A stretch of 64,000 nt of DNA from Patescibacteria group bacterium (GCA_041650995.1 JBAZJZ010000002.1:13344-77343), one strand, 5' to 3'; shown: positions 3,443-46,249, counted from the stretch's first letter. Notes: generated by a model from the sequence alone, not told the origin. Numbers and translations are program-made.

Positions 3443-3462
3443 GTCCCGCAGTACTGCGGGAC
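3443..3462 (+). promoter_or_regulatory. GC hairpin motif gtcccgcagtactgcgggac upstream of RBS of high-GC gene
   Basis: Perfect 8-bp inverted repeat; same motif recurs at 4811, 38297, 46232. Confidence 0.5.
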
Positions 3463-3487
3463 GAGCCAAAAGAAAGGAGGGCGAGCC

Positions 3488-4288
3488 ATGAAGGCGAGCC
3501 CGACGCTGACCGCCGATTTGCGGCGGGGAGACGAAACCCAGGTGCTCTTGAAACTGCAGCAGGATGGCGTGACGCCGGACGACTACGCCGCAATCGCCGC
3601 GAACGAGGCGATGCGGGCCGACATCGTGGCGGCCATCCAGAAGTACCGTCTTTTCACGCCGCCCGAGGAGCAGGTGAAGATCCTTCTTCGGCTCAACGGT
3701 CTCCTCTGGTGCGATCCGGCCATCACGGCCGAAGCGATCGCCGCTCTGGGGGCCCCGCCCACCGCGCCGGATTCGGGCAAGAACGTCCTTTACGCGGTCG
3801 TCCTGCTCTACGAGACGGGCGACGCGCTCACAACTTTCCAGCGGAACTGGGAGGCCTGCGTCGCGATTCACGGCGAGGAGCGAACCTGGAAGTGGGACGG
3901 CCTCGTCATGACGCCCAAGGGCGTGCGGCCCCGTGAGAAGGCCAAGCCGCGCCCCGCGGGTCTCCGCTGGGCCGTGGCCGAACTCGGTCGCGCCTACCAG
4001 GATATCGCGGTGCGTGACGCGCGCGTCGTTCAGGGTTCCACGGAACTCATGGGCATGGGGCAGGAACTGCCCTTGATCGCGGCTCTGCATCCGCGCTGGG
4101 CCACCTCCATGAACGGCAAGACGATTCCGTTCGTGGACGCGCTCGACCTGGAAGTTGCGCCGGACGGCGAGGGCGAGTTCGGCTACGCTCCGTGCCTCAA
4201 CTTCGACCGCGACTACGGCAAGGTTCACCTCAACGCCGACGACGTCGACAATTCGCTTCGGAACTTCGGTTCGGGTTCCCTTCAGTAG
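3488..4288 (+). CDS. High-GC hypothetical protein (266 aa), no recognisable domain, no signal peptide
   Basis: ORF in about 900 bp island of about 66% GC within about 38% GC flanks; RBS aaggagg 8 nt upstream of ATG 3488; own promoter (ttgact-17-taatat about 3352-3385) and own terminator at 4361-4393. Antisense ORF 3395..4354 judged GC artefact. Confidence 0.5.
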   Translation: MKASPTLTADLRRGDETQVLLKLQQDGVTPDDYAAIAANEAMRADIVAAIQKYRLFTPPEEQVKILLRLNGLLWCDPAITAEAIAALGAPPTAPDSGKNVLYAVVLLYETGDALTTFQRNWEACVAIHGEERTWKWDGLVMTPKGVRPREKAKPRPAGLRWAVAELGRAYQDIAVRDARVVQGSTELMGMGQELPLIAALHPRWATSMNGKTIPFVDALDLEVAPDGEGEFGYAPCLNFDRDYGKVHLNADDVDNSLRNFGSGSLQ

Positions 4289-4360
4289 TGTGTCTCTTGA
4301 CGCCTTGAGTCTTTGGTTCTTTGGAACTTGAGGCCTTGGCGTTTTGGACCACATTCCGCG

Positions 4361-4393
4361 AGGGCAGGTTTCTACGATCTGCCCTCTTTTTTT
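4361..4393 (+). terminator. Rho-independent terminator of high-GC gene
   Basis: gagggcaggtttctacgatctgccctc followed by ttttttt. Confidence 0.6.
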
Positions 4394-4581
4394 ATTTTCA
4401 AATTTTTTATAAAATAATATTATTTAAGATGTCATCCTCGGATTTAATTCGGGGATCCAGTAAATTATTTTTTTTGGATTCCCGCTGGAGTTTACCCCGC
4501 ACTTGATGCGGTACGGGAATGACAAACAAGAAGAATTTTTATTTGAATATTTTAATTGTGGAAAAAGTGTGGAAAAGGGTC

Positions 4582-4610
4582 TTGACACAAAAAATCAAAG
4601 GAGTTAAAAT
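4582..4610 (+). promoter_or_regulatory. rRNA promoter P1 (TTGACA-17-TAAAAT)
   Basis: cttgacacaaaaaatcaaaggagttaaaat, about 260 nt upstream of 16S. Confidence 0.55.
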
Positions 4611-4684
4611 ACACTTGTTCTTGAAAGTTGTTGCGTTTTTTGATTTATAATTAAGCAAAAAACAGCCAAACACATATTTGAAAA

Positions 4685-4713
4685 TTGACAATTTAGAAAG
4701 AACATTGTAATAT
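4685..4713 (+). promoter_or_regulatory. rRNA promoter P2 (TTGACA-17-TAATAT)
   Basis: ttgacaatttagaaagaacattgtaatat; tandem with P1 as typical for rrn operons. Confidence 0.55.
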
Positions 4714-4810
4714 ACTTTTGTCGCTAGAAATAGCGACATTTAGTATCCATTTCTTTGACAACTTAAAGTAATAGAAGTACGCCAATTTGTTCTAGTTCTC
4801 AAACTAGAAC

Positions 4811-4828
4811 ATCCCGCAGAAATGCGGG
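4811..4828 (+). promoter_or_regulatory. GC hairpin motif tcccgcagaaatgcggga in 16S leader
   Basis: Same inverted-repeat family as 3443/38297/46232; preceded by second hairpin gttctagttctcaaactagaac. Confidence 0.5.
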
Positions 4829-4865
4829 ACCTTATAAAGTATTTAGTTTCATCTTGAACAACAAA

Positions 4866-6461
<1,596 letters not shown>

Positions 6462-6668
6462 AGGGAGAAAATAATATTGTCCCCCTCACGGGACAAGATT
6501 GGTCGAAGTTTCATTTATTTGAAACTTTCAACAGTTATTAGGTGTGAAAAAAAGACAGAAAGCCGTACTTCTATTACTTCAAGTCGTCAAAAATAAAAAT
6601 GATTGGTAAACTCTTGCAAGAACCAATCATTTTTGTTATCATTTTAGAAACACTTTTGGTGGGTTTAT

Positions 6669-6745
6669 GGGCGCGTAGCTCAGTCGGTTAGAGCGCGTCA
6701 CTGATAATGACGAGGTCGGAGGTTCGATTCCTCCCGCGCCCACCA
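6669..6745 (+). tRNA. tRNA-Ile (GAU), CCA encoded
   Basis: Cloverleaf: gggcgcg/cgcgccc acceptor, anticodon loop ctgataa, T-loop ttcgatt. Confidence 0.9.
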
Positions 6746-6798
6746 AAGAATTACACCAAAGAATTAAGCAAGGAAATTTTTATATTATATTTTAGTAT

Positions 6799-6870
6799 GC
6801 CGGGGTAGCTCAGTGGTAGAGCGAAGGACTGAAAATCCTTGCGTCGTGAGTCCGATTCTCACCCCCGGCA
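6799..6870 (+). tRNA. tRNA-Phe (GAA)
   Basis: gccgggg/ccccggc acceptor, D-arm gctcagtggtagagc, anticodon loop ctgaaaa, T-arm gtgagtccgattctcac. Confidence 0.85.
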
Positions 6871-6886
6871 TTTCGCGTTTTAAAAC

Positions 6887-6957
6887 CGGGGTGTAGTACA
6901 ACGGTAGTATGCATGCTTTGGGAGCATGAGACCCGGGTTCAATTCCCGGCACCCCGA
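6887..6957 (+). tRNA. tRNA-Pro (UGG)
   Basis: cggggtg/caccccg acceptor, anticodon stem catgc/gcatg with loop tttggga, T-arm ccgggttcaattcccgg. Confidence 0.75.
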
Positions 6958-6969
6958 TTTGGATAAATT

Positions 6970-7548
6970 ATGCTTAAATTTATTAGCGATACAACCTGGG
7001 AAGAGGTTTTTGAAAAATGGAGAAATCGCGAGGCTAATAACCCCGGATGGATTAGGACTGCCACGGAAATTAAAGGTTGGCCGGATTGGGAATCATGGAG
7101 AAGATTTTCAGCCGCACAAATTGACGCAGAAAAACGGGTTTGGAAAATTTATGAATTTACGGATCCTATAAATGATATTTCAGCGATGCTTGTTGGTCCA
7201 TACGGCGGATGGCAAGGAAGATTGCCAGAAAAGAACAAAAATTCCTTTGAAGAATTGCTAAGTATCCCCAAGAATTACGATTTTTTTAGAAATCATGATG
7301 CAGTTGCGGCCTTGGCAAGAAATTTTCCTTGCCCCACGGAATTTATCGGGTTAGTTAGAGAAGATAATGGAAAATTAGTTTGCCTCGAAGGTCATCATCG
7401 GGCGACGGCAATAGCTTTAGTCAAAAAAGAAGGCAGAAAAATTGATTGTAAAAATATAAAAATAGCTGTGACTCGATTACCAAAAGATGAGTGTGAAATT
7501 TTGGAGAAGATCCTCCAACGCGGGACATCGAAAAATTCGGAACTTTAA
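6970..7548 (+). CDS. Hypothetical protein (192 aa) with LEGHHRATAIAL motif, possibly ParB/sulfiredoxin-like fold
   Basis: ORF directly after tRNA cluster; motif resemblance only. Confidence 0.45.
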   Translation: MLKFISDTTWEEVFEKWRNREANNPGWIRTATEIKGWPDWESWRRFSAAQIDAEKRVWKIYEFTDPINDISAMLVGPYGGWQGRLPEKNKNSFEELLSIPKNYDFFRNHDAVAALARNFPCPTEFIGLVREDNGKLVCLEGHHRATAIALVKKEGRKIDCKNIKIAVTRLPKDECEILEKILQRGTSKNSEL

Positions 7549-7553
7549 ATAGT

Positions 7554-7624
7554 GCGGGATTAGTATAGTGGCAGTACGACTCTCTTCCAAGGAGTAGGCG
7601 CCAGTTCGATTCTGGTATCCCGCT
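7554..7624 (+). tRNA. tRNA-Gly (UCC)
   Basis: gcgggat/atcccgc acceptor, anticodon stem actct/ggagt with loop cttccaa, T-loop ttcgatt. Confidence 0.8.
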
Positions 7625-7649
7625 TTTTTGAAAAATAAAGAAATAAAAT

Positions 7650-8393
7650 ATGAATCCCCTGCTTTGGATTATTGGAAGTACAATTATTGTCAGTTTGATC
7701 TCATTGATCGGTGTTTTTACTTTGGCTTTGCGGGAGAAATATTTGGAGAAAATATTGCTTACGCTCGTGGCGTTGGCTTCGGGTGCTCTGATGGGCGGCG
7801 CCTTTATCCACCTTCTTCCTGAGGCGATAGAAAAAGCAGATGGTAAGCCGATTTTTATTTGGGTGCTCGTTGCTTTTGTGGCATTTTTTATTATAGAAAA
7901 AGTTTTACAATGGAGACATTGCCATAAGGAGAAGTGCGAAGTTCACACTTTTGGTTATATGACGCTTTTGGGCGACGGGGCTCACAATTTTATTGATGGT
8001 TTAATCATTGCCGCGGCTTTTGTGGAGGGTACGAGTTTAGGGCTTGTTGTGACGGCTGTAGTTATTTTACATGAAGTCCCTCAAGAAATCGGCGATTTTG
8101 GTACGCTTCTTTATTCCGGTTTTCAAAAGAAAAAAGCTCTTCTTATGAATTTTTTGAGTGCCGTCACGGCAGTGGCAGGCGGAATTATTGGTTATTTTTT
8201 GGCCAATGCCTCGGAAAGTTTTGTCAATGTGTTGATTCCCTTCGCGGCTGGTGGCTTTATTTATATAGGTGCTTCTGATCTTCTTCCTGAAATTAGAAAA
8301 ACTACCAAGATTAAAGAATCAATTGGTACGTTAGCGATGTTCATTTTGGGGGTGGTCATAGTCTATTTAATGAGATTTTTAGATATTGAATAA
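7650..8393 (+). CDS. zupT: ZIP-family zinc/iron permease (ZupT-like)
   Basis: HNFIDGL...LHEVPQEIGDFG signature, 8 TM segments. Confidence 0.85.
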   Translation: MNPLLWIIGSTIIVSLISLIGVFTLALREKYLEKILLTLVALASGALMGGAFIHLLPEAIEKADGKPIFIWVLVAFVAFFIIEKVLQWRHCHKEKCEVHTFGYMTLLGDGAHNFIDGLIIAAAFVEGTSLGLVVTAVVILHEVPQEIGDFGTLLYSGFQKKKALLMNFLSAVTAVAGGIIGYFLANASESFVNVLIPFAAGGFIYIGASDLLPEIRKTTKIKESIGTLAMFILGVVIVYLMRFLDIE

Positions 8394-8396
8394 AAT

Positions 8397-8846: not shown

Positions 8847-8883
8847 GATGATTTGCCAGTATGAGGGAGTGAGGGTGAAGGGG

Positions 8884-8912
8884 TTGACAGAATAGCCAAA
8901 ATATGGTATATT
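8884..8912 (+). promoter_or_regulatory. Sigma70-like promoter TTGACA-17-TATATT for 3D-domain gene
   Basis: gggttgacagaatagccaaaatatggtatatt. Confidence 0.5.
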
Positions 8913-8955
8913 AAAAAGTCCCCAAAATGAGGGATTTTTTAAAACTAAAACAAAA

Positions 8956-9465: not shown

Positions 9466-9489
9466 GACGAAAAATAAAGAAGAAATATA

Positions 9490-9517
9490 AAAAGGGTTGC
9501 CAAAGGCAGCCTTTTTT
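9490..9517 (+). terminator. Rho-independent terminator
   Basis: gggttgccaaaggcagcc hairpin plus tttttt. Confidence 0.5.
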
Positions 9518-31100: not shown

Positions 31101-34100
31101 ACTACGGCGGGAATTTTCGGGCTGATGGAGATTTAGGTATTGCTGTTTCTGGTTGGGCTTCTGCAAGTAGCGCAACAGCGAATTATGGTGGGAAATTTTT
31201 AGCAGGGGGTACGGGAGGAGCATATGGGGTATATGGCGAAGCAACTGGCCTTTCGGGTACAAATTATGGTGTTTATGGGAAAGGTTCAGTAGGTGTTTAT
31301 GGTTATGTTAGCGCAACGCAGTATGGTTATTTAGGGGATTCCACCTACGGCGTTTATGGCCGCGGTACAATTGGTGTTTATGGAACAGACGGGACTAGAT
31401 ATGGACAATTGGGGTATGCTTCGGCAGGTGTTTATGGAACAGACGGGACTAGATATGGACAATTGGGTACGGGAAGTTATGGTGTTTATGGTTATTATGA
31501 CGCCACGCATTCAGGCTATATTGGTGGCGCGAGTTATGGAATTTACGGAACCGGTGCTGATGGCGAGGGGGTGCACGGCGAAGCAACGACTGGTTATGGC
31601 GTTCGCGGTAATGCAACAACCGGTTATGGTACGTCAGGATTTTTGTCTGGTGAAACGGGACGAGCAGTTTGGGGTTCTGCTTACAACGCGAGCGGTACAA
31701 CAACTTATGGTGGATATTTTAGTTCGTCCGGCACTTCTGGTTATGGTGTTTATGCGGAAGCAACTGCGAAAAGCACTGTTTATGGTGTTTACGGGGTTGC
31801 TTCAGATGCAGGAGCGGGCACAAGTTACGGAGGGTATTTCACATCTGCTGGCACGACAGGCCGCGCAGTTTACGGCTCAGCCTCAACTACTGGAGCAACA
31901 ACAGCTTATGGCGGTTATTTTACATCTGCTAGTGATTACGGTCGTGGTGTTTATGGTGAGGCTACTGATACTGCCGCAGTTCAAAATTATGGCGGTTATT
32001 TCTCCGCCGCGGGCGGGGCGGGCATTGGCGTTTATGGTGTAGCTTCTGCCGCAAGTACTGTTTATGGCGGCTATTTTGAAGCTACGAATACAGGAGCTGT
32101 GACAAATTACGGCGTTTATGGGAAAGCCGCCGGAGACACCGGTTATGGAGTTAGGGGTGAGGCTTCTGACACGGGCGCGGTAGCAAATTATGGCGGATAT
32201 TTTTCCGCAGCTGGAACAGGTGGCGGAGTGGGTATTTACGGGTCCGCGACGGGCGCTTCTGGTACAAACTATGGAGTCTACGGCGCGGTGACTTCAGCCG
32301 CTGGCTGGGCAGGGTATTTTACCGGGGGCTATGGTTTGTATGTCAGCGGTTCAGCTAGTCAAATGACCGGTGCCGCTTCTGGCCCGACTTTAACGGTTGC
32401 TGCAACCTCCGTCTCCGCAAATAATATTGCTTTAAAAGTTACTTGGGCTGACAGTTATCTCACAACCACCGACGGCGGCCCTTTAAAAATCGTTTCCACA
32501 ACTGACACCGGTTTTACCACTACGGGTGATGCCGCGACCAGACGCGTTGGTTTAATCCAGGTTGACGCGAATGTTACTTCAGCCTCAAGCGGAAATTTTA
32601 TTGCCTTTAACTCTGATGTTAATGGCACTCCGGACGCAGAATTCAGGGTGTCAATGGCTGGTGCGACTTATGCTGATGGCGCTTATTCATCGGCTGGCGC
32701 TGACTTAGCCGAAGTTTTTGATGTGAGTGATTTATCTTTATCTTTGGGAGATTTGGTGGTGGTTGACAATGTTACTGGTAAACTTAAAAAATCATCCGCT
32801 GCTTATGAAGAAGGATTAGTTGGGATCGTGACTGATGCGACAATGGCAGCTTTTATCGGCGGAGATTCAGATGGTGACCTCGGCCCGGATCAAAGAGTTA
32901 TTACTTTAATTGGTAGAATGTCTTTGACAAAAGTTAATGATGAAAATGGCACAATTAATCCGGGAGATTTGTTAACGTCTTCATCAATGCCTGGCGTAGC
33001 AATGAAAGCCACAAAACCCGGTTCGGTGATTGGTCGGGCATTAGCGTCATGGAGCGGCCCGGGGCAAGGAACGATTGAAGTTTATGTTAATCAAAAATGG
33101 CATTCAGGCGGAACGATTACTACTGATGGCACGATTTCTTTTTTCAATGATGATTTTACTTTCAATAAAACAGAAACAGCGACAGAAATTATTCAGGGTT
33201 ATAACTCCAAAGGTTTAACTTTTCGCGGTTCTGGTTGGGATGGCGCTACGGCGCAAAATGTGGAAATGAAAATTAATAATGTTGTCGCGAGCGCGTCAAA
33301 TTACAAATTAGCAGTTTTAAATAATGCAGGGCAGGAAGTTGCTTATCTTGATCAGGCCGGCGCGTTTGGTCTTTCCGGGAAATTTTATCCGGCCTCGCCA
33401 ACAGGCGCGCAAACCGATGCTTACATTTTCTATCGTAACAATCGCATAAGAACGAACGCCGCTGGATGGGCGACAGGCTCGTTTGATTTTGCCGAAATGT
33501 TCTTATCGCACGAATTGCTTGAGGCTGGAGACGTGGTTGTGTTAGACGAGGCGACAAATGAGTATGTAAAAAAATCAACCACTACTTATAATAATATGGC
33601 GCTCGGCATTGTTTCTACTGAGCCGGGATTTTTAGCCGGAGCCAATGTTGATTTTGACGACCCTTCGGCCGATCAAGGTTATCCGATCGCCCTGGCTGGC
33701 CGCGTGCCGACAAAAGTTTCTGCGGAAAACGGTCCGATTCGGCCTGGCGACTTTTTAACAACTTCCGCGACGCCTGGCGTGGCCATGAAAGCGACTGAGT
33801 CGGGTTTGATTATTGGAACAGCGCTTGAAAGTTTTGATGGCCCTGGTGTTGGTTTAGTGAAAGTTTTCGTTAATCTCTCTTGGTATAACGTTATGGGGGA
33901 GACGACGCCAGTCGGAGAATTGGCACAGCTCACACTTACTGGTGATTTAAATATGAATGGCAATTATATTTTAAATGTCGGGAAGATTGTTGGGTTGGAT
34001 GAAAAATGGAGCATTGATGAAAATGGTATCTTGAAAGTAAAATTAATTGCTGAGGACGCGGGCGAGAAAGAGATGTTTGGAGTAACTTCAGATAAAGTAG

Positions 34101-34794: not shown

Positions 34795-37266
34795 ATGTTT
34801 GATTCAATTCAAAACAGTCACCCTCATAAACAAAATGGCAGGAATAAAAATTCTTTGCGCCCGTTAGTTTTAATCTTGGGATTTTTTGCTATTGCGAGCC
34901 TTGGCGTTATTGGTTTTGCTTTGTTGCAAAAATGGAGTCCTCCAGTTTCTGCCGCGCCGGGAATTTATAAAGTTTTAAATTACCAAGGAAAGCTGGAGGA
35001 CTCTGGCGGCATTACCGTGGCTGATGGAGCGTATAATATAAAATTTACGATTTATAATGCCCCCGCGGGCAATGTTGTCCTTTGGACCGCGCGTGAATCA
35101 GACGCTTGCGGCGCTCCTTTTAATCCTTCGGCAAAATCAGTCACAACTTCGCTTGGTATTTTTTCCACTCAACTTGGCGAGTCGGGTGATTGTCCAATAA
35201 ATTTAGATTTTAATGATGATTCATATTATCTTGGCATAACTGTTGGCGCGGATTCGGAAATGACGCCGAGAAAAAGAATCGGGGCAGCTGGGTATGCTTT
35301 TAACGCGGATTTAATGGATGGTCTGGATTCTTCTGAAATTGGAGGCGCAACTGCTTTTGTTCCGGTAACAGATTCAAGCGGGAATTTTGTTTTAACTGGC
35401 AATGTTACTTTTGATACAAATACTTTTTTTCTTGATTCCACAAATGACAATATTGGAATTGGTACGGCCGCCCCGGATACTGATCGGACCGTAGATTTAA
35501 CGACTGCTAAAAAATACGGAGTTTATTCCGTGACAAGTTCGGCGGCAAAGAACACTGTAGCAGTTTATGGTCAGTCAACTGATGCAACTAACAATACTAG
35601 ATACGGTGGATATTTTACTGCGGCAGGTGGCGGAGGTCGAGGCGTTTTTGGTGAGGCTTCAGAGTCAGGAAATCCAATGATTGCAAATTATGGCGGTTAT
35701 TTTACCTCGGCGGGAGATTGGGGGTTGGGCGTTTATGGAGAAGCTTCTGCGAGCGGTTTGGGGACAAGTAATACGGGGGGATCTTTTACTGCGGCGGGAG
35801 ACACTGGTTACGGAGTTAGAGGTGTAGCTTCCGGGACAGCCGGGGTAAATTATGGTGGCTATTTTATATCATACGGGCCCGGCGGATATGGAGTTTATAG
35901 CTGGGCGAATGATACCAGCGCCGCGGCGAATTACGGAGGGTATTTCCGGGCTAGCGGCCAAGGCGGATATGGAGTTTATGGTATAGCATCAGATACGACT
36001 GCCACGGCTAATTACGGTGGATATTTCACCGCGGCTGGCACAGGTGCTTTATCAAGCGGTGTCTATGGTGAGGCATCTGGTTCTGGAACCGTTATAGGTG
36101 TGAGGGGATATGCCCCAGATCTTACTGCAGGAGTTACAAACTACGGCGGTTATTTTTCCGCCCAAGGCGGCACAGCCCAAGCTGTTTTTGGTGATGCTAC
36201 AAATACCGGAGCCGAAATAAATTACGGTGGTTATTTTACTGCGCGCGGTTCAGGGGCTGGAACATCAGGAGTCTATGCCGAGGCAAGCGGGGCAGCATCT
36301 GTTTACGGCGTCTATGGGCTTGCTTCCGATAGTACTGCGGTTACAAACTATGGTGGATATTTTACCGCGGCTGGCACAGGCGCGGGCACAAGCGGTGTTT
36401 ACGGTTTAGCCTCGGGAGCAGCTAGCGTTTACGGTGTTAGAGGCGAGGCCCCGGCTACTGGCGCGGTACAAAATTTTGGTGGATATTTCACCGCGGCTGG
36501 CGATACAGCCATAGCGGTTTATGGTGCGGCTACGGCCATAGCTGGAGCAAGTAATATGGGAGGATTTTTTAAAGCAGACGGCAACGCAGCTGATTCCTAC
36601 GGCGTTTATGCCCTTGCTAGTGGATCCGGAAACAATTATGGTATTTTTGCCTCAACCCTTTCTGTGACTGGTTGGGCAGGATTTTTTAATGGAGGCCGAG
36701 GAATTTATGCTTATCGTTTTTCAATCAACGACGGAATTACGGCGGTTGATTATAACACAATTGGTCCAGCACTCGCAGGCCATACCGGCGGAGGAGAAAT
36801 TACAGATCAGAACGATCTTTTTATCAATGGTAGCTTGGAAGTTGACGGAGAGGCCTGGCTTGATGGCGGTCATACTGACTTAGCGGAAATGGTTGCTTAC
36901 AGCGGCGAGGGCGAGGCTGGTGATGTTATTGTCATTGATGATCAAAATGATAATTCGGCAAAACTTGCAACCAAACCTTATGATCAAAGTGTTCTTGGGA
37001 TTATCTCTACCAAGCCAAGTTTAATTATCACAGGCGACATTAGAGAGGGAAAACTTTTGGCCGTCGCTGGCCGCGTGCCGACAAAAGTAACAAATATCAA
37101 TGGTATGATTCATCGTGGAGATTTGCTGACAACCTCTTTGATCCCTGGCCACGCCATGAAAGCGACTGCGCCAGGTCCGATTGTTGGTAAAGCTTTGGGT
37201 GAATGCAACGAGGGTCAGTGTGTTATTTGGGTTTTTCTAAATGTGAGTTGGTACGGTGGGATATAA
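34795..37266 (+). CDS. YG-repeat fibre protein paralogue (823 aa) sharing N-terminal anchor domain and C-terminal module with giant ORF
   Basis: N-terminal (L/V)NYQGKL..SGGITVADG.Y..KF.IY and DSYYLG.TV..D.EM.PRKR.GA.GYAFNADL.DGL conserved with 25115 ORF; C-terminal DLAEMV...GRVPTKV...PGHAMKATAPG module. Confidence 0.8.
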   Translation: MFDSIQNSHPHKQNGRNKNSLRPLVLILGFFAIASLGVIGFALLQKWSPPVSAAPGIYKVLNYQGKLEDSGGITVADGAYNIKFTIYNAPAGNVVLWTARESDACGAPFNPSAKSVTTSLGIFSTQLGESGDCPINLDFNDDSYYLGITVGADSEMTPRKRIGAAGYAFNADLMDGLDSSEIGGATAFVPVTDSSGNFVLTGNVTFDTNTFFLDSTNDNIGIGTAAPDTDRTVDLTTAKKYGVYSVTSSAAKNTVAVYGQSTDATNNTRYGGYFTAAGGGGRGVFGEASESGNPMIANYGGYFTSAGDWGLGVYGEASASGLGTSNTGGSFTAAGDTGYGVRGVASGTAGVNYGGYFISYGPGGYGVYSWANDTSAAANYGGYFRASGQGGYGVYGIASDTTATANYGGYFTAAGTGALSSGVYGEASGSGTVIGVRGYAPDLTAGVTNYGGYFSAQGGTAQAVFGDATNTGAEINYGGYFTARGSGAGTSGVYAEASGAASVYGVYGLASDSTAVTNYGGYFTAAGTGAGTSGVYGLASGAASVYGVRGEAPATGAVQNFGGYFTAAGDTAIAVYGAATAIAGASNMGGFFKADGNAADSYGVYALASGSGNNYGIFASTLSVTGWAGFFNGGRGIYAYRFSINDGITAVDYNTIGPALAGHTGGGEITDQNDLFINGSLEVDGEAWLDGGHTDLAEMVAYSGEGEAGDVIVIDDQNDNSAKLATKPYDQSVLGIISTKPSLIITGDIREGKLLAVAGRVPTKVTNINGMIHRGDLLTTSLIPGHAMKATAPGPIVGKALGECNEGQCVIWVFLNVSWYGGI

Positions 37267-37316: not shown

Positions 37317-37326
37317 GGCGGCACAG

Positions 37327-37385
37327 TTGACAAAGAGGTAAAATTATGCTATTATAAATTGTAAAATTAGAGGTGGAGATTAGGC
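37327..37385 (+). promoter_or_regulatory. Cassette promoter module copy A (TTGACA-17-TATTAT plus conserved downstream box)
   Basis: ttgacaaagaggtaaaattatgctattataaattgtaaaattagaggtggagattagg; about 90% identical to 38182-38240. Confidence 0.6.
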
Positions 37386-37439
37386 GAGATTTGTTTTAAA
37401 ACAAGCCAATTTCGGGTGATCTTCACTTTTCGAAGAACC

Positions 37440-37458
37440 GTCTCGGCAGCGCCGAGAC
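37440..37458 (+). promoter_or_regulatory. GC hairpin gtctcggcagcgccgagac immediately upstream of RBS
   Basis: 8-bp perfect inverted repeat, 6 nt before aaggag RBS. Confidence 0.45.
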
Positions 37459-37472
37459 AAGGAGTTTGACAA

Positions 37473-38075
37473 ATGAAGACAACGATGATCGCGGTGTTCG
37501 TTTCCCTGTTCGTGGTTGGGTGCTACGGGAGCTACCAGAACTACGGTACGGACGATGTGGCGCTCGAGACCTGCGAAGTGCGAGTGACGACGAACGCGAC
37601 GAACGCTTCCGTCACGGTGGACGGCGTCGCGGTCGGCAGCGTGGCGGAACTCGCGATGGGCGAGCACACCTTCGCCGCTACGGCTCCCGGTTATTTTCCG
37701 GCGAGCGTAGTGGTGGGGGTGGACGAGGCGTGCGCCCCGGTTGCGCTTCAGCTTTTCCCCGACCTGAATGGAGACTACGATCTTGTGCTGCATAACACGC
37801 TCTACGATCGTCTCCTGCTGCACCTCGACCAGGACGAGGAAGGAAATCTCGTCGGCTACGACTGGTACGCCGACGACCCGGGACACAGCTTCCAGGAATT
37901 CACCGGCACTGTTTCGTTCGATGGAGAGGTTTATCTCCTCTCGGACGATTCGGTTCGGCTGAGTCTTTCGGGGCAGTGGACTCCGCCGAGAATTGGCGGC
38001 GTCTCTCGGATCGTCGGCACCTGGACTTCCGCCGCGGGCGGCGACGGAGAGTGGCTCGCCGAGTCGCGACCGTAG
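37473..38075 (+). CDS. High-GC lipoprotein with PEGA-like domain (200 aa)
   Basis: Lipobox LFVVGC; VRVTTNATNASVTVDGVAVGSVAELAMGEHTFAATAPGYFPASVVV resembles PEGA domain; about 66% GC; antisense ORFs rejected. Confidence 0.6.
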   Translation: MKTTMIAVFVSLFVVGCYGSYQNYGTDDVALETCEVRVTTNATNASVTVDGVAVGSVAELAMGEHTFAATAPGYFPASVVVGVDEACAPVALQLFPDLNGDYDLVLHNTLYDRLLLHLDQDEEGNLVGYDWYADDPGHSFQEFTGTVSFDGEVYLLSDDSVRLSLSGQWTPPRIGGVSRIVGTWTSAAGGDGEWLAESRP

Positions 38076-38085
38076 CGTCGACTGC

Positions 38086-38150
38086 GCTCGAACCGGCATC
38101 TGGCAGAAATCGTGAAGAACGATTCTCTGTCAGGTGCCGGTCTTTTTATT
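38086..38150 (+). terminator. Cassette terminator module copy 1 (long hairpin accggcatctggcaga...tctgccagatgccggt plus T run)
   Basis: gctcgaaccggcatctggcagaaatcgtgaagaacgattctctgtcaggtgccggtctttttatt; three near-identical copies (also at about 38996 and 40793). Confidence 0.65.
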
Positions 38151-38181
38151 AAGGGCGAAATTTTTCTTGGTTTAAACGAGA

Positions 38182-38240
38182 TTGACAAAAGGGTAAAAAT
38201 GTGTTATTATAAATTGTAAAATTAAAGGTGGAGATTAGGT
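38182..38240 (+). promoter_or_regulatory. Cassette promoter module copy B
   Basis: ttgacaaaagggtaaaaatgtgttattataaattgtaaaattaaaggtggagattagg. Confidence 0.6.
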
Positions 38241-38296
38241 GAAAAAGCCTTACTGCTAAAACTTTTTCAGGTAATTTTCACTTTTTGTGAATAGCC

Positions 38297-38315
38297 GTCC
38301 CGCAAGACTGCGGGC
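38297..38315 (+). promoter_or_regulatory. GC hairpin motif gtcccgcaagactgcgggc upstream of RBS
   Basis: Member of the tcccgcag...ctgcggga family. Confidence 0.45.
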
Positions 38316-38331
38316 AAGGGAGGGGTTAACA

Positions 38332-38994
38332 ATGAAGGCGACGATCGCAATGTGCGCAATGAGCGTGGCGCTCACGGGCTGCCTTGGCATGGAGCTCGGC
38401 AATCCCGAGCCGTTTGAGTTCAGTCTTTCGACTGACTGGAGCAACCCGGAAGACGAGGTGCTCCGCGAGGCGGCTGAGATTTGGGAAAGGATGACCTGCC
38501 TGGACCTCTTCAATGACCAGGGCTACGAACCGCACGACGGGGGTTGGACTCGACCGAAGTTGAACGATCACAAGGATGTGGTCTATCCGTTTTCCCAGAT
38601 CGATACCACACCCGACATCGAAGACTACCTTGAGATGACAGGCGGGTTTGCCGGTTACTTCTGCGGCGACATCCTGATCATGCGGGGGGCGTATCTGCGC
38701 TCCGTGGACGATCAGATTTGTTTTTACAGCAGAGAGGGCGATCCTTCTCGTTGCTTGTCCGAAGAGGAGGCAAGGGAGGACTTTGTCTTCCAGTTCAATC
38801 TAGAGTTGGTCAAGAGAACCGCCATCCATGAATTCGGGCACGCGCTCGGTCTGGATCACAACGACTCCGCTCCTTCTGTGATGGGTACAGATGCATCTCC
38901 GCCCGAGTTCTATTCGGTAGAACCAACGGCGGCGGACATCGACAACCTCTGTCGACTGTACGACTGTCCGGCGGATTGTCCAACGCGACCATGA
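38332..38994 (+). CDS. High-GC lipoprotein zinc metalloprotease (metzincin/matrixin-like, 220 aa)
   Basis: Lipobox ALTGC; HEFGHALGLDHNDSAPSVM = HExxHxxGxxH plus Met-turn; start at MKAT (38332) after RBS gggagggg; ORF-track start 38287 (GTG) overlaps hairpin. Confidence 0.65.
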   Translation: MKATIAMCAMSVALTGCLGMELGNPEPFEFSLSTDWSNPEDEVLREAAEIWERMTCLDLFNDQGYEPHDGGWTRPKLNDHKDVVYPFSQIDTTPDIEDYLEMTGGFAGYFCGDILIMRGAYLRSVDDQICFYSREGDPSRCLSEEEAREDFVFQFNLELVKRTAIHEFGHALGLDHNDSAPSVMGTDASPPEFYSVEPTAADIDNLCRLYDCPADCPTRP

Positions 38995-38995
38995 G

Positions 38996-39060
38996 CTCGA
39001 ACCGGCATCTGGCAGAAATCGTGAAGAACGATTCTCTGCCAGGTGCCGGTCTTTTTATTT
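38996..39060 (+). terminator. Cassette terminator module copy 2
   Basis: gctcgaaccggcatctggcagaaatcgtgaagaacgattctctgccaggtgccggtctttttatttt. Confidence 0.65.
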
Positions 39061-39100
39061 TGTTTTAATTTAAAATTTACAAAGATCCACTTGACTTTTA

Positions 39101-39130
39101 AGACATAATATATATATATGATAACGGCAG
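39101..39130 (+). promoter_or_regulatory. Promoter of third cassette (TTGACT, AT-rich -10)
   Basis: ttgacttttaagacataatatatatatatg; followed by hairpin tcggctaaaggaaagccga (39137-39155) and RBS ggaggag. Confidence 0.4.
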
Positions 39131-39174
39131 AACTGGTCGGCTAAAGGAAAGCCGAGCCGAGGAGGAGAAAGAAG

Positions 39175-40704
39175 ATGAAGGAGAAAATCGGAAAGTTCAT
39201 GGGATTCTTTTTGACCGTCTTCGTGGCGGCCACGATGTTCGCCTACGCCGCGTGCGGTGATGATGACGAGACGGCCAGGATCTGCGACCCCGGCTCGACG
39301 CAGGATTGCTCCTGCGGCGGCGGACGGACCGGTTACCAGATTTGCGATTACACCGGTCTCGCCTGGGGCACCTGCGAGTGTGACTGCGTCCCCAACTGCA
39401 CCGGCCGCGAATGTGGCTCGGATGGTTGCGGTGGCTCGTGCGGATCGTGTTCGGGTTCCGAGATATGTACTCCTGGCGGGGTCTGCGATACGACTGCGCC
39501 GAACTGTCCGGCAGATCGCGATTGCACCGGCCGTGAGTGCGGACCTGATCCGGTCTGCGGTACTTCCTGCGGCACGTGCTCGGGATCCGAGACGTGCAAT
39601 GCGTCGGGTAGATGCGATTGCACCCCCAACTGCTCCGGCCGTGAATGCGGCTCGGATGGCTGCGGAGGTTCTTGCGGTTCGTGCTCGGGATCCGAGACGT
39701 GCAATGCGTCGGGTACGTGTGTCCCAGGCACGGATCCGTGTTCATCGAGCTCCTCATGTTCGGCGTGTACGCCGCGAGGTGGATGCGGCTGGTGCCAGTC
39801 GACGGGAGTTTGCGTTTCGGGTATTAGTTCCGGACCAACAAGCGGAACCTGCGGTGACTGGCGTTGGACCCCAGGCGACTGTTGCACCCCCAACTGCTCC
39901 GGCCGTGAATGCGGCTCGGATGGCTGCGGAGGTTCTTGCGGTTCGTGCTCGGGATCCGAGACGTGCAATTCTTCAGGAAGGTGTGAATCCACGGTGTCCT
40001 GCGGAAACGGGCGTTGCGATTCGGGCGAAACGTGCGCTACGTGTCCGGCCGACTGCGGCGCTGGCGACGGATGTCTCCCTGGTTCTTCAGGGCCGTGTTC
40101 TAACTCGTGTGGAGCAGGCACGCGTATCTGCGACTCCAGTTGCCGGTGGGGAACTTGCGTTGTTTCTTCTGGCAGCGCCACGGTCCGGGTCACAGACGCA
40201 ACTTGGGTTTACCAGGCGTACCCGACAGTGAACAACTGCCACTCAGCTGTCCTATGGGTCGGCGTGAATCCAACGGACTTCCGGTATTACTACTCGTTCT
40301 TTGCACTCAATACGAGTGATCTTGACGCAATTCCGTCAGGCGCGGTCGCGACCATCACGAGCGCGAATTTACGGTTGCGCGTCCGGGATCGTCTAGGAGC
40401 AGCGCCAACGCTTGGTGTCTATCAAGTTACGTCTTCCTATTCGTGTGCGGCGACCACATACCGCAGCATGCCGTCGTTTTCTCTACCTGCATATGCTACG
40501 TGGCTTGCCAACCAGTCATCTGGGTCGTGGGTTTCGGTGCCTATTGTGGGATTCATTGAGTACGTGCGTTCAGCTGCTGTTGTCAATCCGACCTTGGCGT
40601 TGGGGATAGGCACCGGCGACATCGGGGTCGTCGAGTACATTGCTCCCGGCGGTGGCGGTACAGTTGATGACCCGACGATTACTGTGACATGGACGTGCCC
40701 ATAG
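39175..40704 (+). CDS. High-GC Cys-rich repeat lipoprotein (509 aa): 4x CxxNCxGRECGSDGCGGSCGSCSGSETC repeats, PSI-like CGWC module, C-terminal DNRLRE-like beta domain
   Basis: Lipobox AYAAC; four near-identical 30-aa Cys repeats; CSACTPRGGCGWCQSTGVC; C-terminal VRVTDATWVYQ...SFFALNTSDLDAIPSGAVATITSANLRLRV. Numerous overlapping ORFs on other frames rejected. Confidence 0.65.
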   Translation: MKEKIGKFMGFFLTVFVAATMFAYAACGDDDETARICDPGSTQDCSCGGGRTGYQICDYTGLAWGTCECDCVPNCTGRECGSDGCGGSCGSCSGSEICTPGGVCDTTAPNCPADRDCTGRECGPDPVCGTSCGTCSGSETCNASGRCDCTPNCSGRECGSDGCGGSCGSCSGSETCNASGTCVPGTDPCSSSSSCSACTPRGGCGWCQSTGVCVSGISSGPTSGTCGDWRWTPGDCCTPNCSGRECGSDGCGGSCGSCSGSETCNSSGRCESTVSCGNGRCDSGETCATCPADCGAGDGCLPGSSGPCSNSCGAGTRICDSSCRWGTCVVSSGSATVRVTDATWVYQAYPTVNNCHSAVLWVGVNPTDFRYYYSFFALNTSDLDAIPSGAVATITSANLRLRVRDRLGAAPTLGVYQVTSSYSCAATTYRSMPSFSLPAYATWLANQSSGSWVSVPIVGFIEYVRSAAVVNPTLALGIGTGDIGVVEYIAPGGGGTVDDPTITVTWTCP

Positions 40705-40792
40705 TTGCGGCTCAGTTCGAATAGTGCCTCGCGCGCACAAGAACACCGCAGCGTTAATTTCCGCGCTTGTCCGTGACGCAGACACGCATCGT

Positions 40793-40855
40793 TGAACCGG
40801 CATCTGGCAGAAATCGTGAAGAACGATTCTCTGCCAGATGCCGGTCTTTTTATTT
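40793..40855 (+). terminator. Cassette terminator module copy 3
   Basis: ttgaaccggcatctggcagaaatcgtgaagaacgattctctgccagatgccggtctttttattt. Confidence 0.65.
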
Positions 40856-40975
40856 AATTTTTTTATCTTACTGTGGATGAAATTTTTTTATAATCAGTTT
40901 TTGTGCTATAATTAACTAATTAATTTAAACGCTTATTCTCGAAAGTGAGTCTTTTGGGAAAAGTAAAATCTAACT

Positions 40976-43327: not shown

Positions 43328-43500
43328 AATTGGTTGACCACGTACAAAGTAAAGGTGAATCAATATGTGTTCAGTAAACAATGAAGGTAAATATAGTTTT
43401 TGCTCTGCCGGGCGCAAAGAAACCTAAACTTTGTATCGTAGTTGACAAAATTATAAATTGTTGTAACCTTAAAAAATCTCCCGCCTGGATTTATGGTTTT

Positions 43501-43574
43501 GGGCCTATAGTATAGTAGTAAAACGCCTCCATGGCATGGAGGAGTCGAGGGTGCGATTCCCTCTAGGTCCACCA
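43501..43574 (+). tRNA. tRNA-Ala (GGC), CCA encoded, embedded in 10-bp inverted repeat atctcccgcc/ggcgggagat
   Basis: gggccta/taggtcc acceptor (G3-U70), anticodon stem cctcc/ggagg with loop atggcat, T-arm gagggtgcgattccctc; upstream ttgacaaaattataaattgt promoter-like box. Confidence 0.8.
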
Positions 43575-43629
43575 AAAATTCCGGCGGGAGATTTTAGTTG
43601 ATTTTTATTTTAAATAAAAAATAAAGAGT

Positions 43630-44724
43630 ATGTCTTTTAAAGTGGGAATTGTTGGTCTGCCAAACGTGGGGAAGTCAACCCTTTTTAAAGCGTTGACTCG
43701 AAAACAAGTAGACATCGCCAATTATCCTTTTTGCACTATTGAACCAAATGTGGGGACGGTTGCCGTGCCCGATTTCCGTTTACAAAAATTAAATGATTTT
43801 TATAATTCGGCGAAAATTGTTCCGACCGTGATTGAATTTGTAGACATTGCCGGTCTTGTGAAAGGCGCCCACGAAGGTCAGGGTTTGGGCAATAAATTTT
43901 TGTCGCATATTAGGGAAGTAGACGCTATCTGCCAGGTGATTCGGGCTTTTGAAGATCCTAATGTCATTCATGTAGATGGAAAAATTAATCCCATTTCTGA
44001 TTTAGAAGTTATAAATTTGGAATTAATTTTTGCCGATCAAGATACAGTTAAAAAAAGACTCACGAGTTTGGCTGGCGAACTTAAGGGTGGCAAAGAAAAA
44101 ATACTTCTTAAGACCAATGAAACACTTTTAAAAATTAGCGATGCTTTGGAAAAGGGAATAATGGCTGCAGCACTTGGCCTTGACGAGGAGGAAAAATTTT
44201 TGGTTAAAGAATTGAATTTATTATCTTTAAAGCCGACGTTTTACGCCTTAAACGTGGCAGAAGCTGATATAAAAGCCGATAAAAAAGAAATTTTGAAAAA
44301 GTTTAATTTGCCACTTGATCCGGAAAAAGTAATTTTAGTTTCGGCAAAAATTGAGTCGGAATTAGCAGAACTTCCGCCAGAAGAGGCAAAAAATTATTTG
44401 AAAGAGTTGGGTCTGGAAGAATCCGGTTTGGACAAATTGATCAGGGCGAGTTATTATGAACTCAATTTGATCACCTTTTTTACGGCCGGACCAAAAGAAG
44501 CACATGCCTGGACAATAGCCCGAGGAACTCTGGCGCCACAGGCTGCCGGTAAAATTCATACTGATTTTGAACGCGGGTTTATCGCGGCTGAAGTTATAAA
44601 TTGGAAAGATTTGTTAGATTCCGGCGGAGACGTTGGGGCGAAAGAGAAGGGATTAATTCGGCTGGAAGGAAAAGAATACGTGATGCAAGACGGCGATACG
44701 GTAGAATTTAGATTTAATGTGTAA
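43630..44724 (+). CDS. ychF: Ribosome-binding ATPase YchF
   Basis: MSFKVGIVGLPNVGKSTLF G1 motif, TGS-domain C-terminus. Confidence 0.9.
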   Translation: MSFKVGIVGLPNVGKSTLFKALTRKQVDIANYPFCTIEPNVGTVAVPDFRLQKLNDFYNSAKIVPTVIEFVDIAGLVKGAHEGQGLGNKFLSHIREVDAICQVIRAFEDPNVIHVDGKINPISDLEVINLELIFADQDTVKKRLTSLAGELKGGKEKILLKTNETLLKISDALEKGIMAAALGLDEEEKFLVKELNLLSLKPTFYALNVAEADIKADKKEILKKFNLPLDPEKVILVSAKIESELAELPPEEAKNYLKELGLEESGLDKLIRASYYELNLITFFTAGPKEAHAWTIARGTLAPQAAGKIHTDFERGFIAAEVINWKDLLDSGGDVGAKEKGLIRLEGKEYVMQDGDTVEFRFNV

Positions 44725-44725
44725 T

Positions 44726-44757
44726 AAAAAAATCCTTGCCATTTTGCGAGGATTTTT
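44726..44757. terminator. Bidirectional terminator between ychF and methyltransferase gene
   Basis: aaaaaaatccttgccattttgcgaggattttt. Confidence 0.55.
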
Positions 44758-44767
44758 AAATTTTTAT

Positions 44768-45994
44768 TTAAAGAGAAAAAATAAAAATTTCCCGCCAGAC
44801 GAATTGGTCGGGCCGGGAGTAGAGAATAGAATTACGCGGCGTAATTTCTAAAAATGGATATTTTTTAAAATCTTTTGGTAGAAGGTCGGTCGCAGAAAAG
44901 CCGATTTTTTTTATTTCGTCCAGAATCGGTAAAAATAAATCTTGTTTTTCTGTATGAAAAACAGGGAAGAGAATTGCAATTCGGCCGTCGGATTTTATAA
45001 TTTTTTTAAATTCTCGGAAAGCGGCAAGATAAAGGTCGGAAAGTTCTCTGATAATTTGTTGGATTTTTTCTTGAGGTTCGTCGCCATGGAGAGGTGGACC
45101 AAGGTATGGTTCAGTGATAATCGCATCGATTGATTGCGAGGGAAATTTTTTTGAAATTTCCTTGGCGTCAGCTTCTAATAATTTATAATTTTTTGTTTCC
45201 AGGTTATAATTTTTTTTCAACCATTCTAAGTTTTCTTTTGCTCCGGATAAAGTTTCGGGGTTAATATCCGTGCCAATTAAATTTTCGTAGCCCCAAAGCA
45301 GCGCTTCTTCCAAAATTGTGGCAAAGCCGCAGAACGGATCTAAAAGAGCAGAGTGTTTGTCTATTCGCGCTAAATTAAGCATAATTTTAGCAAGTTTCGG
45401 CGGCATTAATCCGACTCGCATGCTTCGGGCGGGTCTGCCATAATCGCGGAAACTCAGATCTTCAAATTCTTGGACTGCCAAAGTTTTACCGAGATAATTT
45501 TTTTCTTTGCCAATCAAAAAAACTAATTCGGCGCCGGCCTCGGTCAGCAATTTATTTTTCTTTACTACGACTGAACTTAAATTTTTTTCTTTTGAAGTTA
45601 CCCACCTAGCCTGGATTTTCGCCTCCTTGAGCAGGTTTTTTATTTCCATGGCTAGATTTTTTATTTTTTGAGTTCCCTTGTTTAAGCGCGCGACAGAAAC
45701 ATCTTCATCTAATTTATAAAAACTAAAGCCAAAATAAATTTTTTTAGCCGAAGAATTTTTCAAAATTTCAGCGATGTCTTCGGCCGCGAATTCGTCCGGC
45801 ATTTCAAGGATTTCCCCAAATTTAACCGTACCCCCGAGGCGCGGCATGATTTCATTAGCAGAAAGTTCACCTTCAATATCGGCTACAATGGCTTCGTTTG
45901 AAAGGTGGTTAAAAATAGCTTGTTCGTCCAAAACGGCGGCTAGCTCCGCGCTTGACAAAGTTGGATTTCTGCCTAAAATAAAGAAGTATTTCAT
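44768..45994 (-). CDS. Class I SAM-dependent RNA methyltransferase (Trm11/RlmL-like, THUMP-associated family)
   Basis: DPFCGFATILEEA (motif I) and ITEPYLGPP (motif IV variant of NPPY). Confidence 0.5.
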   Translation of the reverse strand: MKYFFILGRNPTLSSAELAAVLDEQAIFNHLSNEAIVADIEGELSANEIMPRLGGTVKFGEILEMPDEFAAEDIAEILKNSSAKKIYFGFSFYKLDEDVSVARLNKGTQKIKNLAMEIKNLLKEAKIQARWVTSKEKNLSSVVVKKNKLLTEAGAELVFLIGKEKNYLGKTLAVQEFEDLSFRDYGRPARSMRVGLMPPKLAKIMLNLARIDKHSALLDPFCGFATILEEALLWGYENLIGTDINPETLSGAKENLEWLKKNYNLETKNYKLLEADAKEISKKFPSQSIDAIITEPYLGPPLHGDEPQEKIQQIIRELSDLYLAAFREFKKIIKSDGRIAILFPVFHTEKQDLFLPILDEIKKIGFSATDLLPKDFKKYPFLEITPRNSILYSRPDQFVWREIFIFSL

Positions 45995-46231
45995 ATTTTT
46001 TAAGTTTTACGAGTATCGGCTGGATTTTGGTTTATTATATCACATCTTGCCTCATTAGAAATTCTTGGCAAAATTTTTTATAAAATTTTTGTTTCAATGT
46101 GTCCACGAAACAAGCCATAAAATATTTTCTTAAAATAGGCATTTTAAAATAAAAATAAATTTTTAACGGGGCTTGCGTAAATTTTAGCCCTGTGCTAAAC
46201 TTTTAGAAACTTTATTATCCAGCGAGTGCGA

Positions 46232-46249
46232 TCCCGCAGTACTGCGGGA
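46232..46249 (+). promoter_or_regulatory. GC hairpin motif tcccgcagtactgcggga in rpsF leader
   Basis: Identical to the motif at 3443; 38 nt upstream of rpsF ATG. Confidence 0.5.

Follow-up and report, generated by a model that had tools for sequence, protein, structure and literature searches.

The window analysed here, a stretch of 64,000 nucleotides from the genome of a Patescibacteria group bacterium (GCA_041650995.1, JBAZJZ010000002.1:13344-77343), contains four sites at which the GC-rich, hairpin-forming palindrome TCCCGCAGTACTGCGGGA or a close variant lies in a gene leader. The genes concerned are the 16S rRNA gene (rrs), rpsF and two genes of unusually high GC content. On balance we lean towards reading the four sites as copies or variants of a very small dispersed repeat, akin to the repetitive extragenic palindromic (REP) elements, that has spread onto pre-existing hairpins and does not act as a co-regulation signal. 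The occurrence of one sequence in rrs, rpsF and the high-GC genes would therefore reflect common descent of the repeat and not a shared regulator. Two lines of evidence lead to this interpretation: at the leader positions a hairpin is conserved while its sequence is exchangeable, and elsewhere a dispersed family of the same sequence sits where hairpins stand.

Four leaders of the window share a hairpin

Copy A (3443-3462, plus strand) reads GTCCCGCA-GTAC-TGCGGGAC, that is G-TCCCGCA-GTAC-TGCGGGA-C, with a stem of 8 bp and a predicted stability of -14.0 kcal/mol. It lies in the 5' untranslated region of an open reading frame (ORF) of 66% GC (3488-4288), 10 nt 5' of the Shine-Dalgarno (SD) sequence AAAGGAGG, and is formed in the minimum-free-energy fold, in which the flanks (3438-3468) are paired in part. 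Copy D (46232-46249, plus strand; TCCCGCA-GTAC-TGCGGGA, 7 bp) is the exact 18-mer, located 37 nt 5' of the rpsF initiation codon (ATG at 46287); in the fold it makes up the tip of an outer imperfect stem of the rpsF-ssb-rpsR leader (46220-46261, plus strand), the arms of which are CAGCGAGTGCGA and CGACGAGCGCAG. The exact palindrome is thus that of copies A and D, the other two being variants. Copy B (4812-4829, plus strand; TCCCGCA-GAAA-TGCGGGA, 7 bp) is third among the hairpins of the 16S leader and lies 40 nt 5' of the start of the 16S sequence at 4870. Copy C (38298-38315, plus strand; TCCCGCA-AGAC-TGCGGGC) is a degenerate variant with 6 perfect pairs that abuts the SD sequence AAGGGAGG of a metzincin-like ORF (38332-38994; Peptidase_M10 match). 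The family conforms to the pattern [G/A]TCCCGCA-N4-TGCGGGA[C/T], with GTAC as the master loop, from which copy C departs by one mismatch.

Two further hairpins, of different sequence, precede the other genes of the cassette array to which the metzincin-like ORF belongs. The cassette 1 leader carries GTCTCGGC-AGC-GCCGAGAC (37440-37458, plus strand; 8 bp, -12.8 kcal/mol), which abuts an AAGGAG SD sequence at a position homologous to that of copy C. In the cassette 3 leader, TCGGCT-aaaggaa-AGCCGA (39137-39155, plus strand; 6 bp) lies 5' of the SD sequence of ORF 39175-40704. The original prediction for this region had listed all six hairpins, including these two as analogous structures of different sequence, and all six are present, with two shifted by 1 nt (4812-4829, not 4811-4828; 38298-38315, not 38297-38315). 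Its description of a perfect 8-bp stem of the same sequence at four sites holds for copy A; elsewhere, A and D are identical as 18-mers and B and C are variants. The short distances it had noted are correct, the hairpins ending 0-10 nt 5' of the SD sequence in the four high-GC ORFs, 37 nt 5' of the rpsF ATG and 40 nt 5' of 16S. Its search pattern tcccgcagNNctgcggga, with the core cagNNctg, is not fitted by copy B.

The recurrence is far above chance. The motif CCCGCA-N2-8-TGCGGG has 4 matches in the window against 0.02 expected, and none of 100 shuffled sequences reached 4; the strict motif has 2 matches against 0.00 expected. Relaxing the search of the window to 3 mismatches added nothing convincing, and an extra 8.5 kb of the source genome beyond the window held no further copy, so that about 72 kb contain four. 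Predicted stabilities range from -10.3 to -14.0 kcal/mol, and the hairpins form in whole-leader folds. No T-run of the kind found in intrinsic terminators follows any of the four window copies (0 of 4), and no Rfam family matched any hairpin of the window, either at the gathering threshold or at E <= 10.

The 18-mer is dispersed in Bacteroidota and Patescibacteria

The exact 18-mer, in its GTAC-loop form alone, was searched in the GTDB species representatives (596 Gb). At least 120 loci were found, against about 9 expected (596 Gb / 4^18). Counted by record title among the matches listed, about 76 loci belong to Bacteroidota (Saprospiraceae, Lewinellaceae, Flavobacteriales, Chitinophagales and the isolate Neolewinella agarilytica DSM 24740) and about 27 to Patescibacteria (Falkowbacteria, Peribacteria, Saccharibacteria, Absconditabacterales and others). 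Several genomes have 4-7 loci each among these matches, and within genomes the 18-mer is often part of longer, genome-specific repeats. Loop variants seen elsewhere (ATAC, ACAC, GGAC) resemble decayed forms of GTAC. A string search of the literature for the motif, written as DNA and as RNA, yielded no paper with the sequence, and 18 motif-bearing loci gave no Rfam match at the gathering threshold. A phage origin was considered and rejected, as the 18-mer had a single match in viral contigs, about the chance level.

The family has multiple copies per genome, lies mainly between genes, and is tied neither to gene function nor to gene orientation. ORFs of at least 120 aa make up 67% of the sequence in low-GC loci yet contain only 10 of 64 copies, most of these ten at ORF edges. 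Intergenic copies occupy divergent (10), convergent (10) and tandem (18) spacers. Among the neighbours, 150 ORFs match 104 Pfam families, none of which is represented in more than 3 ORFs. The positional bias towards start codons raised with the original prediction is not borne out: 0 of 243 oriented copies in other genomes lie within 15 nt of an SD-led start. With at least 120 loci, mostly intergenic, in all types of spacer and beside unrelated genes, the dispersed REP-like repeat, one of the options that prediction had offered, is the one favoured.

Could the resemblance of the window hairpins be fortuitous? The hairpins might be independent local stabilisers or insulators, made alike by convergence (for instance on a thermodynamic optimum) or by duplication of cassette leaders only. 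All 4 high-GC ORFs have a GC hairpin directly 5' of the SD sequence, with differing stems; the leaders of cassettes 1 and 2 are paralogous; and a similar hairpin-then-SD layout with another stem is found in Patescibacteria locus L173. These points are outweighed by the identity of the 18-mers at the unrelated sites 3444 and 46232, by the recurrence of the same 7-bp stem in the 16S leader and by the at least 120 exact copies, which extend to another phylum. Moreover, a hairpin just 5' of the SD sequence is not generally enriched in Patescibacteria loci (2.9%, versus 1.8% at random positions). We therefore give this explanation little credence.

A second explanation is that the 18-mer is a true REP element, or REPIN (a doublet of REP sequences), whose mobility depends on a REP-associated tyrosine transposase (RAYT) with its gene at another site of the genome. 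Like REP sequences, it is short, palindromic and extragenic, is dispersed in several copies per genome, and occurs within genome-specific mosaic repeats, as in bacterial interspersed mosaic elements. Other traits do not fit. No conserved head of the GT[AG]G type was found beside the stem in 117 distinct copies, the flank profile of which displays a weak CC[G/A]...[C/T]GG preference. Copies are mostly singlets, two related hairpins within about 100 nt being seen in about 5 of the 120 loci listed. The stem is 7-8 bp and perfect, versus the imperfect stems typical of REP. Finally, the Y1-transposase family is absent both from the 25 neighbour families listed and from the 30 annotated ORFs of the window between 1 and 49 kb; more generally, no transposase figures among the top 25 Pfam families of the 150 neighbouring ORFs. 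A RAYT-driven element thus seems unlikely.

Two other candidates were set aside. Collapsed transposon ends, as in a miniature inverted-repeat transposable element (MITE) of the DDE type, are not supported, since no half-site pairs bound longer inserts and target-site duplication is lacking, direct repeats of 3-9 nt being not above chance. An uptake sequence comparable to the DNA uptake sequence (DUS) type of Neisseria is likewise rejected, as the single half-sites CCCGCAG and CTGCGGG occur 58 and 64 times, respectively, outside full hairpins in 886 kb, a number that does not exceed the chance level.

A fraction of the copies extend longer stems. Pairing of the flanks was scored by contiguous perfect extension, a test based on minimum free energy being non-discriminating because shuffled partners paired equally often. 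At least 3 further perfect pairs were found in the flanks of 22 of 132 copies, against about 2 expected; these include clear terminators in loci L018, L033 and L095.

Related leaders carry other hairpins at the same positions

The source genome lies near Falkowbacteria, its TrmD protein being 87% identical to one from that group. Close relatives of the source genome were gathered through exact-protein look-ups; a metagenome scan with TrmD yielded distant relatives only (44-66% identity) among the matches listed. In loci L203 and L204, whose TrmD proteins are 89% and 87% identical to that of the window, the flanks of the 16S-leader hairpin are nearly identical to those of copy B and the neighbouring 10-bp hairpin (4789-4810) is invariant. 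At the position of copy B, L203 has CTCCGTC-GAAA-GACGGAG and L204 has CTTCGTC-GAAA-GACGAAG. The size of the hairpin and the GAAA loop are unchanged, and 5 of 7 pairs differ on both sides between copy B and these hairpins. The leader 3' of the hairpin is not conserved in sequence between the window and L203 or L204, and therefore no boxA could be identified.

A comparable picture emerged at rpsF, where leaders were aligned by eye because MAFFT/RNAalifold misplaced the swapped tips. L209 and L213-L215 (S6 proteins 87-90% identical) retain the promoter as well as the outer arms AAGCGAGTGAGA ... CGAGCGAGCG, and have an AT-rich hairpin of -6 kcal/mol as the tip. L206-L208 lack the whole structure, and L210-L212 have another leader. 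An autoregulatory leader of the S6:S18 type is not supported: no Rfam family matched 46200-46290, even at E <= 10, and the tip is different or absent in relatives.

Within the window, homology between the cassette 1 and cassette 2 leaders extends as far as the hairpin, at which point GTCTCGGC...GCCGAGAC stands opposite GTCCCGCA...TGCGGGC. As to the leader of copy A, L204 has the promoter and the first leader hairpin in common with the window; the remaining leader and the ORF are unrelated. The 18-mer family was not found in 47 kb of close relatives, nor in 479 kb of other Patescibacteria loci. From these alignments, a hairpin of this size is apparently the conserved feature at each window site, and its sequence is exchangeable. 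Since both the place and the form of the hairpin are preserved, it is plausible that a hairpin has a structural role at these points of the leaders, one that is not particular to this sequence.

These comparisons bear directly on the interpretation first given to the hairpins, a shared leader element read by a host RNA-binding or processing factor. In explicit form, a host RNA-binding protein or ribonuclease would read the UCCCGCA/UGCGGGA stem as a cis-regulatory or processing element in the rrs, rpsF and high-GC leaders, and so co-regulate or process these transcripts. Several observations are what such an element would lead one to expect: all four window copies lie on the sense strand of predicted transcribed leaders, the stem is identical at the four sites despite differing loops, the position of the 16S-leader hairpin is conserved with covariation, and the 18-mer is exactly conserved across phyla. 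Yet at the orthologous 16S and rpsF positions, relatives close in protein sequence (TrmD 87-89% or S6 87-90% identical) carry a different stem, an AT-rich tip or no hairpin at all; elsewhere the 18-mer resides in terminators, pseudo-tRNAs and convergent spacers, beside unrelated genes; and no Rfam family matched, even at E <= 10. A shared element of this kind appears quite unlikely. The original observation is partly confirmed and its interpretation partly supported; a dedicated RNA-binding regulon is not supported.

A different GC hairpin family was noticed during the comparison. CTCCGAC-(C)GAAA(G)-GTCGGAG occurs in 4 unrelated Patescibacteria loci (L148:4040-4110, L143:1695, L149:4514 and L173:4519) and is similar in sequence to the 16S-leader hairpin of L203. 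In L148, a hairpin of this family and a second GC hairpin lie within the region matched by TrmD, as though inserted in frame into a protein-coding gene.

The 18-mer replaces parts of duplicated tRNA genes

At about 10 loci, a partial tRNA copy lies beside a real tRNA gene and part of the copy is substituted by the 18-mer. The 18-mer may exactly replace the 17-nt anticodon arm (nt 27-43), examples being L036 (Thr; 4740-4900), L027 (Ala; 4300-8000), L094 (Thr; 820-1000), L118 (Gly; 3770-3960) and L120 (Asp; 6880-7420). In others it replaces the D-loop, the T-loop or the part up to nt 34, as in L099 (4920-5092), L114 (504-700), L080 (1346-1431), L029 (4810-5020) and L024 (3920-4340). A further pseudo-tRNA locus is L083 (5280-5800). 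In all, the motif lies less than 400 nt from a real tRNA gene in 13 of the 120 loci listed. Together with the stem extensions and the leaders described above, these loci place the family often where another hairpin would be: at the tips of stems and terminators, in arms or loops of tRNA pseudo-copies, and at leader positions.

Some of these loci contain small GIY-YIG ORFs. In L027, which has 9 tandem tRNA-Ala pseudo-units, 5 of the units come with such an ORF. Small GIY-YIG ORFs also accompany the motif in L083, L120, L028, L019 and L093, and adjoin the pseudo-tRNA in L083 and L120. Over the 120 loci listed, a GIY-YIG ORF was found within about 500 nt of the motif in 6 and anywhere in the locus in 7; such ORFs were also present in background loci, and none was found in the window. 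A linkage with GIY-YIG genes is accordingly regarded here as no more than a side observation.

The placement of copies in stems and arms also bears on the idea that the palindrome is a DNA-level site for a dimeric protein (an operator, or a recombinase or nuclease site) and not a hairpin. Its appeal lies in the master form, a perfect 18-bp palindrome including the central AGTACT. However, the loops of 2 of the 4 window copies, and of several copies elsewhere, are not palindromic (GAAA, AGAC, ACAC) although their stems are intact, the changes at the 16S-leader site are compensatory on both arms, and copies extend existing stems and replace RNA arms. We regard a DNA-level site as the least probable of the explanations weighed.

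Two side observations concern tRNA sequences. Other GC hairpins are placed in pseudo-tRNAs in the same way as the 18-mer, CTCGGCTTGCAGCCGAG in L114 and TCCCGATATATCGGGA in L118. In the window, the repeat stem UCCCGC/GCGGGA is the same, in permuted order, as the acceptor stem of tRNA-Gly(UCC) (7554-7624); this match is probably a coincidence, though notable given the association with tRNA genes elsewhere.

A repeat that may spread by hairpin replacement

We favour, with reservations, the interpretation given at the outset, a dispersed REP-like repeat. As to mechanism, the module may spread by non-reciprocal copying onto pre-existing hairpins. Candidate routes would be short-patch gene conversion or a structure-directed insertion or repair pathway; the spread does not resemble cut-and-paste transposition. 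Once in a transcribed leader, the module could persist by rendering, as RNA, the same generic service as the hairpin it replaced. Such a service might be that of a very stable stem-loop shielding or insulating the 5' region next to the ribosome-binding site, on its upstream side; for the rRNA leader, the module would preserve a hairpin that the structure requires. The repeat is probably tolerated, and may even be useful, because it supplies a stable stem-loop in 5' leaders.

A bolder proposal is that the 18-mer is a mobile module common to Bacteroidota and Patescibacteria that overwrites stem-loops, including terminator tips, leader hairpins and the anticodon arms of duplicated tRNA genes, often beside small GIY-YIG genes. 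Overwriting may be driven by a structure-directed nuclease together with a repair pathway. We advance this proposal tentatively and consider it doubtful in this full form. To our knowledge, such replacement of one hairpin by another has not been reported for REP elements, MITEs or small dispersed repeats. Both the family spanning two phyla and its substitution of hairpins and tRNA arms appear to be undescribed. If stem-loop replacement were indeed the way in which the repeat spreads, it would represent a new kind of genome turnover on the micro-scale, in small-genome Patescibacteria and in Bacteroidota, and would offer a natural test of the freedom with which one leader, terminator or tRNA-like structure can stand in for another. 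A more general lesson is that short hairpin repeats are easily taken for regulatory motifs: here, one 18-base palindrome would account for an apparent regulon of rRNA, ribosomal protein and foreign-looking genes.

A number of points weigh against the dispersed-repeat interpretation. Copy B retains the ancestral GAAA loop, which a simple replacement of the whole hairpin would not do. Copies A and C may have their hairpin in common through paralogy of cassette leaders and not by independent acquisition. Neither a mobilising enzyme nor a target-site duplication or transposition intermediate was found, so we infer mobility from distribution alone. The placement of all window copies on the sense strand of predicted transcribed leaders would have a chance of about 0.03 under random placement in spacers (a rough estimate), a hint that selection or a function is involved in this genome. 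That 18 nt are exactly conserved between two phyla could alternatively reflect a conserved binding partner. Lastly, the census is biased, because the at least 120 loci are only the matches listed and the GTAC-loop form alone was searched.

Comparison with known repeats and leader hairpins

REPINs are widespread miniature mobile DNA (Bertels & Rainey 2011, PMC3116915). Like the 18-mer, the REP and REPIN sequences of Proteobacteria are short, GC-rich, extragenic, multi-copy palindromes that form hairpins in single-stranded DNA and mRNA, occur in mosaic clusters and sometimes serve as terminators or mRNA stabilisers (PMC3116915). The 18-mer is unlike them in having no tetranucleotide head, in occurring mostly as singlets and not as inverted doublets, and in the absence of a RAYT from the ORFs scanned. 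Its unit is also only 18-20 nt long, with a perfect stem and an identical sequence across two phyla.

Another parallel is with the very small mobile repeated elements of cyanobacterial genomes, which are said to be dispersed hairpin-forming units of about 20-27 nt in Nostocaceae. These repeats are reportedly present at an orthologous site in some genomes and missing in others, and are inserted into other hairpins, repeats and structured RNAs, without a known mobilising enzyme. Similarly, orthologous 16S and rpsF leaders lack the 18-mer sequence, and copies are found at stem tips and in tRNA-derived sequences. There are also differences: the sequence and the phyla are others, and the 18-mer replaces a hairpin or arm, whereas a nested insertion leaves the host hairpin in place.

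Hairpin-forming elements and GC clusters are also known from mitochondria (Erpenbeck et al. 2009, PMC2800124; yeast mitochondrial mobile DNA, PMC4478555). Like the 18-mer, they are GC-rich hairpin modules that invade AT-rich genomes, are patchy among close relatives and mainly intergenic, and have no established mechanism. They differ in being organellar, longer and more diverse, and are not known to substitute tRNA arms precisely.

With respect to function, two types of leader structure are relevant. In the 5'-untranslated stabiliser or insulator stem-loops of the ompA, ermC and aprE leaders, a stable hairpin lies near the ribosome-binding site, and structure, not sequence, matters. This dependence on structure fits the hairpin swapping seen here. 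Classical stabilisers, however, stand at the very 5' end of the transcript, whereas in the predicted leaders of the window other hairpins lie further upstream. The antitermination region of rrn leaders consists of a boxB hairpin and boxA; in the 16S leader of the window a conserved hairpin, a possible counterpart of boxB, lies between the processing stem and the mature 5' end, and no boxA was identified 3' of it.

Promoters and genes around the copies

The 16S gene (4870-6459) is followed by genes for tRNA-Ile, tRNA-Phe and tRNA-Pro and not by 23S. Copy B lies 3' of both predicted 16S promoters, P1 (4582-4610) and P2 (4685-4713, plus strand). The first hairpin of the 16S leader (4719-4738, with a GAAA loop) is kept in L203 and L204. 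Leader (4740-4790) and trailer (6556-6605) would pair as a long duplex of -34.7 kcal/mol, the expected processing stem.

At copy A, a promoter-like site upstream (3355-3382, plus strand) suggests a transcribed leader of about 100 nt; this is the site which, with the first leader hairpin, is common to L204. The ORF that follows (3488-4288; 266 aa, 66% GC, between trmD and the 16S promoters) had no Pfam match. Copy D follows a putative rpsF promoter (46172-46201, plus strand; CTTGCG, 18 nt, TGcTAAACT), which was read by eye, is absent from the consensus-scan list, and is kept across L206-L215. The predicted cassette 2 promoter (38182-38210, plus strand), upstream of copy C, agrees with the consensus at 11 of 12 positions and has an extended -10 motif; its twin in cassette 1 is at 37327-37355. 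Cassettes 1 and 2 share this promoter sequence and a long leader hairpin.

The cassettes themselves (37320-40860) are three tandem high-GC ORFs (57-62% GC) in a genome of about 40% GC. The predicted products are a PEGA-domain protein, the metzincin-like protein and a Cys-rich repeat protein of 509 aa. Each ORF has a promoter of its own, a GC hairpin 5' of the SD sequence and an ATGAAG start, and the cassettes end in a 68-nt conserved terminator repeat forming a long hairpin (at 38083, 38992 and 40787).

Between trmD and the 16S promoters, window and relatives each have a high-GC insert of their own (window 3300-4400; L203:4664-5100; L204:4672-7907). In L203 it is a stretch of 60% GC with a putative minus-strand ORF. 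In L204 it is a complete diversity-generating retroelement, with a target ORF of 68% GC, a pair of variable region and template repeat, bAvd and a reverse transcriptase. The window ORF 3488-4288 was considered as a homologue of this target ORF and rejected (BLASTP E = 1.2), only the promoter and the first leader hairpin being common to both. The conclusion of the original prediction that the high-GC genes are native to the genome stands, on the evidence of synteny and not of the motif by which it had been supported: the trmD-16S slot is occupied by high-GC ORFs in 2 relatives (that of L203 being putative) and, in the window, is contiguous with low-GC promoters. By this sequence comparison, the genes are native.

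Upstream of the cassettes, a giant ORF of 3151 aa (25115-34570) and a paralog of 823 aa (34795-37266), the latter without a Pfam match, are both predicted to consist of dozens of diverged 81-nt (27-aa) Gly/Tyr-rich repeats. Between the terminator of the high-GC ORF and the 16S promoters lies a MITE-like element of about 100 nt (4430-4535), which begins with TGTCATCC and ends with GGGAATGACA. Its inner hairpin, ACCCCGCACTTGATGCGGTA, resembles a variant found in L019. Ends of the GTCAT(T/C)CC(C)G type, like those of this element, flank the 18-mer in Falkowbacteria (L014 and L048) and in metagenome-assembled genomes of Bacteroidota (L020, L030, L061, L097 and L112).

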